Assembly: GCA_026710795.1 (NCBI GenBank)
Contig: JAPOQK010000007.1
Coordinates: 14,546 to 78,545 of the forward strand
DNA from: Candidatus Poribacteria bacterium
Lineage (GTDB): Bacteria > Poribacteria > WGA-4E > WGA-3G
Reading direction: 5' to 3'
Length of the DNA: 64,000 bases
The notes below the pieces were generated by a model. The model saw only the letters and a program-made list of their open reading frames with translations, had not been told where the DNA came from and did not search any database. Each line of letters opens with the position of its first letter. Position 1 is the stretch's first letter. The translations under genes were made by a program, and so were the position numbers. Below are positions 8,592-63,455 of the stretch, piece after piece.

Positions 8592-8808
8592 TACTGATGA
8601 ATTTTACATAATAACAATTAGTATTTGTTAACATTTTAAGTATCAAACATCATTATATATCCATCTCAATGAGATGAATATAAGGAAGTTGATTATAACC
8701 TTAAACTATAGCACATGTTGACAAAACTTGGCTCCCGTAAAGCGTTAATCAGGGAACTTGTATTCGTCAAACTTTGATTTACAGATCAGTTAATATAGGA
8801 GGTTAATA

Positions 8809-9618
8809 ATGAAAAGAGTTAATATGTTGAGAACATCTAATGGAGGCATTAGGAATTTTATCTTCATTATGATGATACTGTTTGTTGGTATCGCGTTCAG
8901 TGTGTATGCTGCAAAAGAGGACTGCACAAATCTTGACGGTGATGGTGCTAAACCTCTTAAAGAAGTTGCAGAAGAAGACGCTGGTGTTCAAAATGATTAC
9001 GATGAAGTTGTTGAAGAAGATGATCGTAAAGGAGTTGTCTACCTTGCTTTGATTGGTGGCAGCCAACCAAAGGCAAATGCATGTGGACTTACTCCGAGTA
9101 ATGACGCAGGTGCGTGGACAGGTTGGGGTGGACCTTTAAACTTTGACAATGCTACCATCGGTGAAGGAGCTGCAACCCGAAACCATATTGTGATCGGTGG
9201 CACTTATTTCGAACGTGGTTTAGGAGCGCATGCAATTGGTACTTTTGTATATGATTTATCCGGAGATAAATACCTCAAATTTGAGGCGTATGTCGGCATG
9301 TCCGATGAAAAAGACCCAGGTGATTGTGGTCATGGTGGTAGTAGTGATTTCACATTTACTATTGACGGAAATCAAGCCTTCAAATCCGAGACGCTTAAAG
9401 GTACGGATGGTGGAGAAAATGTTGAAGCTGTCAAAGTTGAATTTGATATCCCCTCAAACGCCAAAGAACTCACAATTGTGATGGGTGATGGTGGTGATGG
9501 AAATGGCTGCGACCATTCTGCAATTGGAGATGCTAAACTTCTTACCGCACAAGCACTTGCGGTTGAACCTGCTAACAAACTCCCAACAATTTGGGGAAGC
9601 TTGAAAGCAAGGTATTAA
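8809..9618 (+). CDS. Secreted NPCBM-like (carbohydrate-binding module) domain protein
   Basis: 269 aa with RBS aggagg 6 nt upstream and a signal/TM segment. The C-terminal part (GLGAHAIGTFVYDLSG..YLKFEAYVGMSD..FTFTIDG...LTIVMGDGGDGNGCDHSAIGDAKL) matches the NPCBM pattern as I recall it. Confidence 0.65.
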   Translation: MKRVNMLRTSNGGIRNFIFIMMILFVGIAFSVYAAKEDCTNLDGDGAKPLKEVAEEDAGVQNDYDEVVEEDDRKGVVYLALIGGSQPKANACGLTPSNDAGAWTGWGGPLNFDNATIGEGAATRNHIVIGGTYFERGLGAHAIGTFVYDLSGDKYLKFEAYVGMSDEKDPGDCGHGGSSDFTFTIDGNQAFKSETLKGTDGGENVEAVKVEFDIPSNAKELTIVMGDGGDGNGCDHSAIGDAKLLTAQALAVEPANKLPTIWGSLKARY

Positions 9619-58225: not shown

Positions 58226-58310
58226 AGTGTTGTTTGTATATTCACAGGATATATTTGAAACGCTATTTCGGATAAAACTTCGTTACAATTGAATGTTTCT
58301 AAAATGTCAT

Positions 58311-58439
58311 ACTTTAGAGTTTTTAGAGTCAATCGCTATTTTGTCAATTTATGCATAAAGCAAAGAACCTTTTCCACTACTGGGTTATCGGCTTTATTAT
58401 GAGTATAATGGTCGGGATTGACTCTAAAACTTTTAGAGT
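58311..58439. repeat. Inverted repeat upstream of the giant TPR gene
   Basis: actttagagtttttagagtcaatc (58311-58334) pairs with gattgactctaaaacttttagagt (58416-58439). The inner 14 bp are perfect, and the arms are 81 bp apart. Confidence 0.7.
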
Positions 58440-58680
58440 TGTGTTATGGGTTGGTTAGTTACTTTCTTTTGAGAATCACTATAACAAAAATAAGGTTGTG
58501 AATTGGTTTTGGAAACCCTTCAATACATGCGATTCGAGACAAATCTATGGTTCTGAATCGGTTTTCTTCATCTTGACTGGGCAGCCTAAATATGCTATAA
58601 TGATAATAGCAACATATCAAAAGACTATTGGATGAGATTCAACTCACACCCAACAAACACCTAATAGGAGATGAAAATCC

Positions 58681-61600
58681 ATGAAAATTCTCGATTTAGT
58701 CTTCACAGTCTATAACATTGTTGGCACTGGATTTTCTATTGCTGGTGGTATTAACCCCGCCATTAAAAAATACTACAAAACTACTACAGAAGAACTTTTC
58801 AAACAGTCTTTTGAAAGAGTAGTTAAGCAATATGCTTCTAACTTCGCGGATCTTACTGACCCAATAACGGTTAAAGTGTGTCACCATACATTTGACAACG
58901 TTATTGCTTCACTAAAAGATGTTGATGAAGTCCAATTCACACAATTAAATGAAAGTGAAAAAATCACAAGAATCACAACGCTTTTTCGTAAATGTATTAT
59001 CGTTCCCGACCATCAATTGCCCGATATGGATATTGAACGAAGAATTCGTCCTATTATTGAAAGGGTGATTATTGATTTTTATTCACAACTTCCACTCAAT
59101 CAGGGAGCATTCAATAAAATTGTCCTTGAATATATTCAAAACAACATAAAGAATCAAGATGATGCCTACACGATGTTAACTGAATTGTCAAGTAAAATTG
59201 ACTATGTGCGAAATGAAGTGACACAACGTCTTTCTGAGGATATCCAAGCCATCAAGGATGACACTGAAAAAATTAAGGATGATAATAAGGAGCTTAAGCA
59301 AAAAGCGGGAGTGATCTTAGATAGCGTTAATGATCTTAAATCCCAATTCAATGTCAATATCTCGGATTTAATAAAAACTGAAGTGGCAAAAGAACATCAT
59401 ACAAGAATAAACGATGTCCAAAAATTACTTAAGAGTCATCAACCTACAAATGCTTTTGAGTTATTAAAGGATCTGAAAAAACGAACATGGAAAGATGCTT
59501 CGGATGATCTAAAGTTTGGCATTCTAACAAATATGGCCGCGGCTCAATTTTCACTGAATAACGAAGAAGAAGCTGCAGAATTGCTTCATGAAGCATTTAA
59601 ATATGATTCTGAAAACGAAAAAGCACTTTCTAACCGTGCTTTAGCATATCTTATACAAGAAGAAACAGAAAAAGCTGCTGATTACGCAAAACAGACATTG
59701 AAGATGAATCATAAAAATACTGATGCCTACGTAATCCTTGTTGAAATTTCTAAGGGAAAAACACTTGATGAAGTAATTGCTAAAGTCCCTAAAGATTTGC
59801 TCCATTCCCCACAAATTGCTTACACGATCAGCAAATTAGCAAAACAAGGTGGTAATTTTGAAGCAGCGAAAAGATGGGGTGAAATTACTGTGTCACAGGA
59901 CCATGGAAACGCTCCTGACTTCAAAGCTGCTTTCGCAGCAATCTTGATTAAGCAAGTATTAGAAGATAATCTTGCAGTGGGGACCAGTCAACTTTATGAG
60001 TCACAAAAGCAACAATTACAACGTGCAATAGGATTTCTTACAGAGGCATGGAATTGCGTTTCCAAAACAGAATTAAAGGATTATAGAGCAGATTGGATCA
60101 TTAACAGAGGAATAGCACATTTTCACCTTGGCGAGTTGACAAAAGCAAAAGAAGACCTTGATACTGCCTTAGAAATTGAAGACTCAAATCCAAGTTTGAT
60201 AAAAAAACGTGCGATTTTAGCTTTTGAGTGTGGAGATATAGTAGAAGCTATTGGATTTATGGAATCGATCCAATCCACGCAGGAAGTACTTGAAGCACCC
60301 ATTATACTTGCAACTTATCTCTTCGCGGATGAACGATTAGATGAGTCTATTACAATACTTAATGATTTTTTACAGACAGATTTATCTCCAGAACTTCAAG
60401 AAAAAGCGAGACGTTTACTCATTGATGTTTATATTACTGATAAACGTTTTGATGATGCGTTAGAAATTTCGATAGCAATGCGCGAGTCAACTCCAAAGAG
60501 CATACCAAATCTTGTTGATGCTGCTCGCATATTTAGCGCGAAAGAAAAACACGATGACGCAATTGCTCTACTCAAAGAAGCATACAACTATGTTCAGAAT
60601 GGTGCAGAATTTCTTGATATTCTATTATTGGCTCACCAACTCTACATCCATGAACAATTTAAAGAAGCTGCAACACTATATGAAAGGCTTGCCAACACCA
60701 GCCAGAACTCTCCAGTGACACAATGTTTAGTACAAAGTTACTATTATTCTGGTGAAATGGCGAAGGCACTTAAGATATGTCAGAATCTGCGTGAGAAATA
60801 TGGACCTCTTGAAAATATATCCGTGATGGAGGTCGTGATTTATGAAGAAATAGGTGATATGAACCAAGCCGAAACGGTTTGTAAGGAATATTTGAAGAAA
60901 TTTCCAACTGATTACGATATGCAAATCCGTCTCGGAATGGTTCTTCTTCGCTCTAATAAAGAGACTGACGTTGATAATGTATTAGAAGATTTTTCTGAAA
61001 TCAAAGACTTTTCATACTTAAATGAGCTTTCTTTACAAGGATGCTTTGAATTAGCACTATTACATCAAATAAGATTACAACAGGAAGAAGCACTAAAGAT
61101 TATGTACGAAGTACGTAGAACGCATTATGATAATCCCGATGCTCACATTTTATATGTCAAGATTTTTCTTTCAGTTGAAAAGGAAATTCCTGAAGTGCTA
61201 AAACCTACTCAAGTTGAAAAGGATACAGCAGTCAAAATCAACATTTCTGACGATGATTTTTTGTATATCTTTGAAGAACGTGAAGATGCAGATATCAAAT
61301 ACTATGAATTTGATATGAATGATCCATTTGCACGACAACTCATTGGTAAAAACAAGAATGACGCGGTAAGTCTCGGTGAAAAAATGTCCGGTCCAAAAAC
61401 TGGAAAGATCGTTGATATCAAGAGTAAATACGTTCATGCCTATCAAGAAACCTTAAGAGAGTACCCTCATTTGTTTCCTTTAGACCAGGACATGGATAAT
61501 ATAAAAATAGACAATTCAGATGATATTGACGATAAAGAGAGATTTGAACAAATGTTCAAAATGATTGATCAGAGACAAGATAAGATAAATAAAATTGAAG

Positions 61601-63096
61601 AACTATATAAGGAAAAAGACCTTACAATCGGTACTTTTACAAGATTAGTTGGTAGTAATAGTTTAGATACTTGGGGTACTCTCATGGGTAACCGTGACTT
61701 AGGGATTAGGTGTAGTATTGGTGACTTTGACGAAAGAAAAAGGGTCCTTAACCTACTTGATCAATCTAACCCTAAACTTGCTTTAGACATTATATCACTT
61801 ATGACTCTGCACTGTCTGGACGCTGCGGATATCATCGTCAATACATTTGGAAAACTATACATCACCCAATCGACTATCGATGAAATACAGAGTGTTATCA
61901 TCGAAAGAGAGGGAATGTGGTCAAAACGCGAGAGGATGGTAGTTGAAAAAAAAGGAAATCAGCATATAAGACAAATTATCAAACCTGAAGAAATTAAGCA
62001 GGGAATAGAATATTTAAAAGACATTGTTAATTGGATTAGAGAGAACTGTGAAGTTGGTCAAGCCACTGTTGGGATAAAAATGAACCAATTGCGCAGGAGA
62101 GAACTCAATGACATGCTACAACAGCATTTCCTTGACACTGTCCTTCTTGCAAGCCAGCCAGAGCACCTACTTTTCTCGGATGATGGACGACTCAGACATT
62201 ATGCGAAAACAACTTTCAATAACGACGCAGGAACAAACTTTCAAATTGAAGGTGTGTGGACACAAGTTTTATTGGAACATTGTGTAAAGCAAGATCACCT
62301 TGATAAAGTTGACTACGATGAGATGACGATAAAACTTGTTTGTTCACACTACTATCACACGCAATTTGATGCAGATTTGTTAATGGAAGTGGCTAAACGT
62401 TCAAATTGGAAGCTATCTGAGCCTTACAATAGTTTTGTGATTGCCTTAGGCAGAGAACGTATGCCTATAAATTATGCAATAGATGTGAGTGTTGATTTTC
62501 TCTTTACTCTTTGGGAGGAATCAATATCTTTCAGACAAAAAGAATTTTTGACGTTAGGCATATTAGCTGGACTTACTTGTGGACGAAATGAAAGTAATGT
62601 TTTGAATCAATTGGCAAAACAGATTCAAGCAAGATATATAATCTATACACCATCTAAAAATTATATTCTTAGGCGAATTAATGAATTTGAACAGATCTTT
62701 CCGCTTGAAAGTAACTTGGCATTTTTAGAGGAAGATGATATTCGTGTCAAGGGAACACGTGTTGGTATAGAAACCGTCCTATACGAATATATTTACAATA
62801 GTAAACCCCCAGAAATCATTGCTGATAGCTACTATACACTCACATTGGAACAAGTCTATGCCACGATCCTGTATTATCTTCAAAATCAAGAAAAAGTTGG
62901 TGCATATTTGGATGATTATCTAAAATATTGTAAAACGGCCCGTGAGGAATACGAGAAAGACCCACCACCCGGTGTTGTTCGATTGCGTGAACTTATAGCA
63001 GAAACGGAAGCATATTCTGATATACCCGATCCCACCAATCCAAAAAACGACACAGCAAGTACAACCCAATCCCCAACCAATAATGAACGGGGATAA
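58681..63096 (+). CDS. Giant multidomain protein: N-terminal unknown, coiled coil, TPR array, GreA/B-C-like, PIN-like, DUF433-like
   Basis: 1471 aa with RBS aggag. TPR-like helical repeats span about nt 59430-61200. GreA/B-C-like segment is KINISDD...EFDMNDPFARQLIGKNKNDAVSLGE...GKIVDIK (about 61210-61430). PIN-like acidic motifs are LALDIISLMTL, ITQSTIDEI and LLFSDDGRL (about 61770-62220). DUF433-like segment is VKGTRVGIETVLYEY...PEIIADSYYTLTLEQVYATILYY (about 62740-62910). Confidence 0.8.
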   Translation: MKILDLVFTVYNIVGTGFSIAGGINPAIKKYYKTTTEELFKQSFERVVKQYASNFADLTDPITVKVCHHTFDNVIASLKDVDEVQFTQLNESEKITRITTLFRKCIIVPDHQLPDMDIERRIRPIIERVIIDFYSQLPLNQGAFNKIVLEYIQNNIKNQDDAYTMLTELSSKIDYVRNEVTQRLSEDIQAIKDDTEKIKDDNKELKQKAGVILDSVNDLKSQFNVNISDLIKTEVAKEHHTRINDVQKLLKSHQPTNAFELLKDLKKRTWKDASDDLKFGILTNMAAAQFSLNNEEEAAELLHEAFKYDSENEKALSNRALAYLIQEETEKAADYAKQTLKMNHKNTDAYVILVEISKGKTLDEVIAKVPKDLLHSPQIAYTISKLAKQGGNFEAAKRWGEITVSQDHGNAPDFKAAFAAILIKQVLEDNLAVGTSQLYESQKQQLQRAIGFLTEAWNCVSKTELKDYRADWIINRGIAHFHLGELTKAKEDLDTALEIEDSNPSLIKKRAILAFECGDIVEAIGFMESIQSTQEVLEAPIILATYLFADERLDESITILNDFLQTDLSPELQEKARRLLIDVYITDKRFDDALEISIAMRESTPKSIPNLVDAARIFSAKEKHDDAIALLKEAYNYVQNGAEFLDILLLAHQLYIHEQFKEAATLYERLANTSQNSPVTQCLVQSYYYSGEMAKALKICQNLREKYGPLENISVMEVVIYEEIGDMNQAETVCKEYLKKFPTDYDMQIRLGMVLLRSNKETDVDNVLEDFSEIKDFSYLNELSLQGCFELALLHQIRLQQEEALKIMYEVRRTHYDNPDAHILYVKIFLSVEKEIPEVLKPTQVEKDTAVKINISDDDFLYIFEEREDADIKYYEFDMNDPFARQLIGKNKNDAVSLGEKMSGPKTGKIVDIKSKYVHAYQETLREYPHLFPLDQDMDNIKIDNSDDIDDKERFEQMFKMIDQRQDKINKIEELYKEKDLTIGTFTRLVGSNSLDTWGTLMGNRDLGIRCSIGDFDERKRVLNLLDQSNPKLALDIISLMTLHCLDAADIIVNTFGKLYITQSTIDEIQSVIIEREGMWSKRERMVVEKKGNQHIRQIIKPEEIKQGIEYLKDIVNWIRENCEVGQATVGIKMNQLRRRELNDMLQQHFLDTVLLASQPEHLLFSDDGRLRHYAKTTFNNDAGTNFQIEGVWTQVLLEHCVKQDHLDKVDYDEMTIKLVCSHYYHTQFDADLLMEVAKRSNWKLSEPYNSFVIALGRERMPINYAIDVSVDFLFTLWEESISFRQKEFLTLGILAGLTCGRNESNVLNQLAKQIQARYIIYTPSKNYILRRINEFEQIFPLESNLAFLEEDDIRVKGTRVGIETVLYEYIYNSKPPEIIADSYYTLTLEQVYATILYYLQNQEKVGAYLDDYLKYCKTAREEYEKDPPPGVVRLRELIAETEAYSDIPDPTNPKNDTASTTQSPTNNERG

Positions 63097-63098
63097 AG

Positions 63099-63455
63099 AT
63101 GCGTCGGTTTCTCATAGACGAAAATATTACTCCTGAATACCGTACACAATTGCTAAGGCATGAGCCATCACTGACGGTCTTGGTTATAGGTGATGAAGGT
63201 GCCCCAGCGAGAAGCACGTCAGACACAGATATCTTAGAGTGGTGTGAACAGAACCAATTTAACTTGATAACAAACAATCGAGAAAGTATGCCTCAACATC
63301 TCTCTGATCATCAAAAAAAAGGAGGTCATGTTCCTGCTATTTTTACGATTAATCTAGCAGTACCAATGGGAAAGATTATTGAAGAATTGCTTATCATCGC
63401 TGGTGCATCTCACGCCGATGAATATATGGATCAGATTGTGTTCATTCCTATCTAA
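63099..63455 (+). CDS. DUF5615-family PIN-like protein (putative toxin partner of DUF433)
   Basis: 118 aa with MRRFLIDENI, SDTDILEWCEQNQFNLITNN and GGHVPAIFTI. It starts 2 nt after the stop of the giant gene. Confidence 0.75.
   Translation: MRRFLIDENITPEYRTQLLRHEPSLTVLVIGDEGAPARSTSDTDILEWCEQNQFNLITNNRESMPQHLSDHQKKGGHVPAIFTINLAVPMGKIIEELLIIAGASHADEYMDQIVFIPI

Follow-up and report, generated by a model that had tools for sequence, protein, structure and literature searches.

A TGP-type protein of Candidatus Poribacteria with a DUF433 antitoxin at its C-terminus and a DUF5615 PIN-like partner: a candidate two-gene defence cassette

The two-gene locus

Two adjacent genes on the forward strand of a 64,000-nucleotide (nt) stretch of Candidatus Poribacteria DNA (assembly GCA_026710795.1, contig JAPOQK010000007.1, positions 14,546 to 78,545; hereafter the window, at its full length) are the subject of this study. 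The first is an open reading frame (ORF) of 1471 amino acids (aa) at 58681-63096, which we call the giant. It encodes a predicted protein of the TPR-GreA/B-C-PIN (TGP) family with a DUF433 antitoxin fused to its C-terminus. The stop codon of the giant is separated by 2 nt from the second ORF (63099-63455), whose 118-aa product is a DUF5615 (COG4634, Mut7-C-like PIN-like) protein and the putative toxin partner. The two ORFs and the gap between them lie exactly where an initial reading, made from the letters of the DNA and without database searches (the sequence-only reading), had placed them. All features described below are on the forward strand.

The arrangement is not a product of chance. 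It recurs in 16 of the 16 related loci first examined, of which 14 come from a one-genome-per-species scan and two are metagenomic, and all of its parts are under purifying selection, with ratios of non-synonymous to synonymous substitution rates (dN/dS) of 0.18-0.47. The PIN domain of the giant has the lowest ratio (0.18), the DUF433 module has 0.22 and the DUF5615 gene 0.28; the highest value, 0.47, is that of a low-complexity tail at the very end of the giant. The 14 loci of the scan all lie in metagenome-assembled genomes of Candidatus Poribacteria, and each of the 16 loci, all from this phylum, has the DUF433-type C-terminus and the gene for the 118-aa protein directly downstream. Among the 14 full-length copies, 12 have a gap of 2 nt between the genes and the other two a gap of 8 nt. 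The conserved junction sequence ...GAACRGGGATAAAGATG puts the ribosome binding site of the small gene (GGGGA, 63089-63093) inside the last codons of the giant.

The giant as a member of the TGP family

TGP proteins were defined by Kaur, Iyer, Burroughs and Aravind (2021, eLife; PMC8195603). On the N-terminal side of their core stands one of ~13 variable domains, an effector or an adaptor. The sequence-only reading had credited the combination of TPR, GreA/B C-terminal-like (GreA/B-C) and PIN modules to comparative work on nucleoside triphosphate (NTP)-dependent conflict systems; this needs correction, as the source is the 2021 paper and not the 2020 paper on NTP-dependent systems.

Judged by its domains, the giant is a member of the TGP family, from which it departs by a C-terminal addition. 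A TPR array at aa ~245-835 (59413-61185) is matched by more than ten TPR Pfam families over aa ~245-830, about 600 aa, and lies N-terminal to the other core domains, as the TGP architecture requires. The GreA/B-C-like domain follows at aa ~845-930 (61213-61470). Scanned as a single sequence, the giant has a weak NCBIfam GreA match here (E = 0.003, aa 849-913) and no match to Pfam GreA_GreB; a profile of the segment built from 26 family members finds residues 94-152 of E. coli GreA (1GRJ) at E = 1.3e-4, with GreB (2P4V) as its second-ranked match. The TGP-type PIN domain (PF20698, PIN-TPR-GreABC) spans aa 1035-1176 (61783-62208) and is recovered at E = 2e-29 with 103 bits, against a cut-off of 27.8. 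The giant has the acidic residues D1036, D1152, D1167 and D1168 of this domain, at positions that show 85-97% conservation among 150 family representatives. A post-PIN helical region (aa ~1180-1340, 62218-62700) marks the end of the constant TGP core. The ~600 aa of TPR and the PIN-like module named in the sequence-only reading are thus borne out by the Pfam families, and its GreA/B-C-like module is borne out weakly by NCBIfam and more firmly by the 26-member profile.

A search with the giant gave 288 matches at E <= 1e-5. The 120 best of these have lengths of 1337-1475 aa, align over 91-100% of the query and share 69-80% identity with it, with conservation that is even over the full length. 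We used aa 840-1471 in an exhaustive HMMER search, which matched 2720 representative clusters at E < 1e-3, and inspected the best 150. Those outside the giant's own family align only to about aa 1340 of the giant, and most of them terminate at the equivalent position. Three carry C-terminal overhangs of at least 50 aa, which are unrelated. Judged by eye only, the overhang of P0187 resembles a Cys/His zinc-binding tail. The giant itself exceeds the constant core by ~130 aa, made up of the DUF433 module and the tail behind it, and has a downstream partner. PHROGs holds no match for either the giant or the 118-aa protein.

The nearest unfused sister of the giant, P0124, is a TGP protein of 1345 aa that is 44% identical over giant aa 1-1342 and ends with the core (aa 1342). 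Neither a DUF433 nor a DUF5615 sequence is present on its 11-kb contig. In this analysis, the fusion is found only in Candidatus Poribacteria.

The C-terminal DUF433 module and the fusion point

The addition consists of a DUF433 (COG2442) antitoxin module at aa ~1341-1445 (62701-63015), in frame and complete, and of a low-complexity tail rich in Ser, Thr, Pro and Asn (aa 1446-1471, 63016-63093). When the whole giant is scanned, Pfam DUF433 (PF04255) matches aa 1355-1399 with 21.5 bits, just under the cut-off of 23.6; scanned alone, the last 138 aa reach 25.1 bits, over the cut-off. The best match of this region in the PDB is 2GA1, a DUF433 protein, at E = 0.13.

The clearest comparison is with the plasmid pP880102 of Rippkaea orientalis PCC 8801, which encodes a 116-aa 'DUF433 domain-containing protein' directly before a DUF5615 gene. 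The giant is 53% identical to this standalone protein over 92 aa (giant aa ~1353-1444, E = 7e-38), and the alignment spans the Pfam DUF433 core and continues into the C-terminal helix, which reads PPPGVVRLRELIAE in the giant. Standalone antitoxins from plasmids of Nostoc, Thermus and Thiodictyon align whole over the same stretch. The DUF433-type motif seen in the sequence-only reading is therefore recovered, both by the score of the isolated tail and by the identity to a standalone DUF433 protein.

The PIN-COG2442 (DUF433) family has been predicted to consist of toxin-antitoxin systems (Makarova et al. 2009, PMC2701414). Rv2018, an antitoxin with a DUF433 domain, neutralises Rv2019, a related RNase toxin (PMC5175181); another related pair that has been tested is VapBC10 of Synechocystis (PMC3834315). 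We scanned metagenomes for DUF433 relatives with a three-sequence seed alignment and inspected the best 80 of more than 470. These are 54-72% identical, and 79 of the 80 are standalone proteins of 106-173 aa; none is joined to TGP sequence. A DUF5615 homologue follows at least 57 of them, often after the same 2-nt gap. Together with the plasmids of Rippkaea, Thermus and Thiodictyon, this agrees with the earlier statement that DUF433 and DUF5615 normally form two small adjacent genes.

The closest relative among these 80, at locus L027, is a 132-aa standalone antitoxin, followed after 2 nt by a 118-aa toxin. It bears the same kind of Ser/Thr/Pro-rich low-complexity tail as the giant, and its N-terminus, MQIEDYFNFLAENDIR, lines up with QIYPLEDNF.FLAENDIR of the giants. 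The join therefore lies at the first codons of the antitoxin and exactly at the canonical TGP end. On these alignments, the C-terminus of the giant is a whole predicted DUF433 antitoxin, attached by a clean whole-gene fusion. Its outermost parts vary: an early stop shortens the low-complexity tail in L014, and a helix of 16-20 aa just upstream of this tail is absent in L008 and L009.

The DUF5615 partner protein

The 118-aa protein matches DUF5615 (PF18480) with 29.9 bits, above the cut-off of 23.8. A tblastn search of plasmids showed it to be 57% identical (E = 4e-48) to the DUF5615 gene of the Rippkaea plasmid, where the pair lies among other toxin-antitoxin pairs and the plasmid is mobilizable. 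It has 244 close relatives, of which the 120 listed are 118-128 aa long; NCBI names the members of its cluster 'DUF5615 family PIN-like protein'. COG4634 proteins are predicted toxins belonging to a reduced, Mut7-C-like PIN group (Matelska et al. 2017), and as of 2017 the Mut7-C group was without a solved structure (PMC5499597). A profile of the toxin family found no meaningful match and no close relative in the PDB. An AlphaFold2 model of the 118-aa protein (mean predicted local distance difference test, pLDDT, of 71) consists of alternating strand-helix units.

Residues D7, E8 and D42 of the protein are invariant. At position 60, every Poribacteria copy has Asn, as does the Rippkaea homologue, and the equivalent residue in the Nostoc, Thermus and Thiodictyon proteins is the Asp of a [TS]xD motif. 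The DUF5615 assignment made in the sequence-only reading thus stands, while the LIT.D-like motif that it quoted does not: the actual residues are LITNN, with Asp replaced by Asn. Given the retained acidic residues of the giant's PIN domain on the one hand and the Asn of the DUF5615 protein on the other, the designation of the pair as a two-nuclease system is uncertain.

The cassette and its genomic setting

A putative promoter lies upstream of the giant at 58573-58601. It consists of TTGACT, 17 nt and TATAAT, with a TG preceding the second hexamer, and as a consensus match it agrees at 11 of 12 positions. Further downstream, a Shine-Dalgarno-like AGGAG (58666-58670) is placed 10 nt ahead of the ATG of the giant, in a region, TAGGAGATGAAAATCCATG, that is near-invariant among the loci. 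The promoter-like site and the ~110 nt 3' of it are kept before the giant gene in nearly all related loci, and their conservation is independent of the flanking genes. Since putative promoter and leader are kept whatever flanks them, the two genes appear as a self-contained cassette. That this cassette serves defence and is driven by its own putative promoter forms part of the explanation that we tentatively prefer below. The G+C content of both genes is 0.35-0.36, compared with ~0.41 for the window.

In most loci, the cassette is located between hsdM and hsdS or dcm genes of restriction-modification islands. In the window, L003 and L005 it comes after a membrane-protein gene, and in the window, L003 and L007 a gene that reads like a ribulose-phosphate epimerase lies 3' of it (after 63616 in the window). 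The conflict or defence setting proposed in the sequence-only reading is backed by the restriction-modification islands and by the low G+C content in the window. Directly behind the DUF5615 gene of L005, at 8797-8976, stands a second copy, 60 aa in length, of the 3' end of the membrane-protein gene that lies upstream; it is 97% identical to aa 595-654 of the membrane protein in the window. This duplicate looks like a scar of cassette insertion. The differing flanks and the duplicated fragment therefore suggest that the cassette moves between sites. Within the window, we found no convincing direct repeats flanking the cassette.

Several further features of the surroundings were observed. In the window, the stop codon of the membrane-protein gene is separated from the cassette promoter by ~320 nt (58226-58545) that the syntenic loci L003 and L005 lack. 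This stretch may be a small mobile insertion; it includes a 24-nt inverted repeat (58311-58334 and 58416-58439) whose arms are 83% complementary and separated by 81 nt. Downstream in the same islands, three loci contain very large ORFs with products of 1444-1480 aa (L002 14396-16419, L023 5056-8603, L024 5355-9212). These have no Pfam match on record, are unrelated to the giant by tblastn, and may be further uncharacterised defence genes. At L001 (13375-16149), a gene for an XPB-like helicase and then a DUF790 gene are found ~3 kb downstream of the cassette, beside an hsdS fragment.

Natural deletion variants

The related loci include shortened versions of the giant. 'Mini' proteins of 404-477 aa are composed, in frame, of giant aa 1-~210, ~990-1017 and 1229-1470; they are devoid of TPR, GreA/B-C and PIN and keep the N-terminus and DUF433. 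An intact toxin gene follows the mini protein in L015 (4001-5793, in a chromosome-level assembly), L016 (4001-5796) and L022 (6001-7574, at 487x coverage). A mini protein is also encoded in L018 (2575-4110), where the contig stops 36 codons into the toxin gene, and in L017 (4642-6083), where the toxin is absent. The most reduced form is a 200-aa 'micro' protein in L023 (4001-4698), which joins aa 1-66 to aa 1341-1471; here, only the last 26 codons of the toxin gene are left. In L024 (4001-5212), a deletion that starts at giant aa ~370 and reaches toxin aa ~85 has removed DUF433 and the front of the toxin.

An intact toxin gene with no in-frame DUF433 upstream was found in 0 of about 21 loci. 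A neighbourhood survey of the kind that the sequence-only reading had called for shows that the DUF5615 pairing is conserved wherever a related locus has retained the toxin; in a set of 17 full-length or shortened loci, each from Candidatus Poribacteria, the pair is kept throughout. The deletion pattern fits what would be expected of a live toxin that needs the fused DUF433, in a sample that is small and made up of adjacent elements. We did not use one further locus, L021 (6001-10787), as evidence, because both the giant, which is divided into several ORFs, and hsdM are split by frameshifts in this 12x assembly; the splits are probably sequencing indels and not signs of pseudogenes.

The N-terminal domain

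The N-terminal domain of the giant (aa 1-240, 58681-59400) is predicted to be a helical bundle with a long helix. Its AlphaFold2 model (pLDDT 74) is all-alpha, with one long helix at residues 159-249. The 240 aa have no match in Pfam (in a scan up to E = 10) or in PHROGs, a word-indexed homologue search returned only fragments of the giant's own family, and a Foldseek search of the model against the PDB and BFVD gave nothing at E < 0.6. The description of this region as uncharacterised in the sequence-only reading thus continues to hold across these databases.

The domain is common to the giant and the unfused sister P0124, and it sits where TGP proteins carry their variable effector or adaptor. 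Domains listed for this position include EAD10, TIR, REase, HNH, SIR2, PNPase, peptidase and HetE-N (PMC8195603); as far as testable, that of the giant matches none of the listed effectors.

The first 30 aa of the giant (58681-58770), MKILDLVFTVYNIVGTGFSIAGGINPAIKK, are hydrophobic and rich in Gly and Asn. The Kyte-Doolittle mean over aa 3-21 is 1.57, which is borderline for a membrane helix, and the confidence of the model drops below 50 at aa 14-19. All deletion variants retain at least aa 1-66.

Discussion

The presence of a predicted antitoxin at the end of a TGP protein, directly before the gene for its presumed toxin, poses the question of what the two do together. TGP genes are described as 'mostly standalone ... 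with few conserved gene neighbors' (PMC8195603). The proteins are predicted to work against phages through contact of GreA/B-C with RNA polymerase, and this contact is regarded as their sensing element (PMC8195603; bioRxiv 10.1101/2024.11.07.622273); the sequence-only reading had assigned the sensing, of a ligand, to the TPR array. The member studied by experiment, Agp of E. coli ECOR25, controls the adjacent small effector Bab and protects from phage T5, for which the GreA/B-C domain is required (bioRxiv 10.1101/2024.11.07.622273).

We tentatively propose that the giant is a TGP anti-phage protein that tethers a toxin via its fused antitoxin, and that infection frees this toxin as a second, abortive-infection arm of the defence. 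We infer that the 118-aa protein is toxic and that the fused domain neutralises it, and likewise what triggers the toxin and that it is released. Initially, the DUF433 module would bind the toxin and hold it silent, so that every toxin molecule would be tethered to the TGP sensor. On infection, the TGP part would change state, by engagement with hijacked RNA polymerase, by TPR-mediated oligomerisation or by degradation. The toxin would then be freed or activated, and an RNA-directed growth arrest, in the sense of abortive infection, would be added to the action of the giant's own PIN nuclease. In a more specific form of this proposal, the giant would be a phage-sensing antitoxin, in which the activation state of a sensor that surveys RNA polymerase gates the tethered toxin directly. 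We regard this version as conceivable, and with more reserve than the general proposal.

Several observations weigh against a role of the cassette in toxin release on infection. PADLOC-DB contains no model that matches the giant or the 118-aa protein. The nuclease activity of the latter is not assured, because Asn replaces the Asp of the canonical [TS]xD motif, and Foldseek found only weak, generic matches to Rossmann-, receiver- or TOPRIM-like folds for its model (E >= 0.035). Behind the argument from the deletion series stand about 21 loci in which the two genes are adjacent, and some of the assemblies (L021, L017) are error-prone. In the mini variants, moreover, the pair persists without the sensor core, which a plain toxin-antitoxin role fits at least as well.

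Such a plain role would make the cassette an addiction lock and nothing else: an ordinary toxin-antitoxin pair, of a type common within type I restriction-modification operons, that would keep the defence gene, or the island, from being lost easily and would transmit no signal. A frameshift, a nonsense mutation or an out-of-frame deletion anywhere in the 4.4-kb ORF would remove the antidote, with the toxin still being made. The position of the cassette between hsdM and hsdS or dcm in most loci is compatible with this, and PIN-like pairs, including one DUF433 pair, are documented inside type I operons (PMC5499597). Those deletions that survive preserve both the reading frame and DUF433, loci that have lost the TGP core (L015, L016, L022) still maintain the pair under selection, and a near-identical standalone pair exists in L027. 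The lock would be leaky, however, since TPR, Gre and PIN can be lost in frame, and for linkage alone adjacency of the genes would suffice, with no need of a fusion. In addition, all domains are under purifying selection in every full-length copy examined, and the TGP part is therefore likely maintained for a function of its own, and Bab/Agp provides a precedent for a TGP protein in control of an adjacent small effector. Altogether, we consider a lock without any signal somewhat unlikely.

Release of a toxin also presupposes that the DUF5615 protein is one. If the exchange of Asp for Asn at the third acidic position has cost this protein its nuclease, DUF433 could bind it as a subunit with a regulatory or structural task, such as an adaptor or, at the cassette promoter, a co-repressor. 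The invariance of Asn60 in the Poribacteria and Rippkaea proteins, where those of Nostoc, Thermus and Thiodictyon have Asp, would be in keeping with such a change, as would the failure of the fold search to recover a PIN structure and the classification of DUF433 as a DNA- or RNA-binding three-helical bundle (PMC2701414). Yet D7, E8 and D42 are still invariant, and three to five active-site residues vary across the group according to Matelska et al. (PMC5499597). The Rippkaea pair, with the same Asn, resides among other toxin-antitoxin pairs on a mobilizable plasmid, and the natural deletion pattern is the one predicted for a live toxin. A non-toxic partner thus appears distinctly improbable.

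Amyloid-type signalling, in which the hydrophobic, Gly-rich aa 1-30 would template a partner effector that shares the motif, is very improbable: Agp does signal by an N-terminal amyloid motif common to Bab (bioRxiv 10.1101/2024.11.07.622273), and aa 1-30 of the giant are Gly/Asn-rich, modelled with low confidence and contained in the segment retained by all deletion variants, but the C-terminus of the 118-aa protein is unrelated, the N-terminus of L013 has diverged, and a profile of aa 1-34 run against ORFs of at least 20 aa in the window and 26 related loci matched only the giants, so that coupling of the Bab/Agp type is unlikely with no partner bearing a similar motif.

Compared with described TGP systems, the cassette has the same order of core domains (TPR, GreA/B-C, special PIN, post-PIN), a variable N-terminal domain and a defence-island context. 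Described TGP proteins vary at their N-terminus, whereas the addition in the giant is C-terminal and is a whole DUF433 antitoxin, and the DUF5615 gene is an obligate neighbour. As in Bab/Agp, a TGP protein stands beside a small presumed executioner (~110 aa), and a short terminal module of the TGP protein acts as the presumed coupler. In Bab/Agp, however, the coupling is by an amyloid motif at Agp's N-terminus and Bab's C-terminus, and Bab is a membrane-targeting, Bell-like domain protein encoded upstream. In the cassette, coupling would occur at the C-terminus by antitoxin-toxin binding, and the effector is PIN-like and encoded downstream.

With DUF433/DUF5615 pairs, which are VapBC-like type II systems, the cassette shares 53% (antitoxin) and 57% (toxin) identity to the Rippkaea pair, the order of the genes, their 2-nt spacing and the antitoxin's C-terminal helix. 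In these pairs the antitoxin is a small, labile protein, whereas in the cassette it forms the tail of a multidomain protein of 1471 aa; the toxin subfamily of the cassette also has Asn at one canonical Asp. Anti-phage systems derived from toxin-antitoxin pairs exist in which the antitoxin part doubles as the sensor, for example fused CapRel. The resemblance to fused CapRel is by analogy only and lies in an antitoxin element that holds a toxin and changes its state on infection; in the cassette, by contrast, the sensor would be a large RNA-polymerase-binding scaffold with a nuclease of its own, and the toxin is a separate polypeptide.

The sequence-only reading knew of no description of such a fusion paired with DUF5615, and for the defining paper this is confirmed: the main text and 26 supplementary files of Kaur et al. 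2021 contain no mention of DUF433, DUF5615 or Mut7-C, and the supplementary tables display +TM+TM as the only C-terminal addition and do not list the Poribacteria protein (PMC8195603). Taken singly, both components of the cassette are of known kinds; the novelty lies in a complete type II antitoxin being joined in frame to a TGP sensor, with a toxin gene as obligate neighbour. This suggests that a toxin-antitoxin pair has been recruited as an extra arm of, or as a lock on, an immune gene.

If the giant is indeed a phage-sensing antitoxin that gates the toxin directly, the cassette would represent a third way of wiring a TGP protein to an executioner, in addition to effector domains fused at the N-terminus and amyloid templating. 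The TGP family of predicted immune proteins is widespread, as the 2720 representative clusters indicate, and only one of its members has been tested by experiment. As the small toxin would be held by a recognisable antitoxin module at the tail of the sensor, release of toxicity could report the activation of the sensor. The immediate reach is limited by a range of one uncultured phylum, Candidatus Poribacteria. Within it, a toxin-antitoxin pair would have been caught in the act of domestication as the effector arm of a larger immune protein, and the standalone ancestor (L027), the sister sensor without the fusion (P0124) and the products of decay (the shortened variants) are all extant. Such a merger of a selfish toxin-antitoxin pair with an immune sensor would bear on the question of what chromosomal toxin-antitoxin pairs are for.

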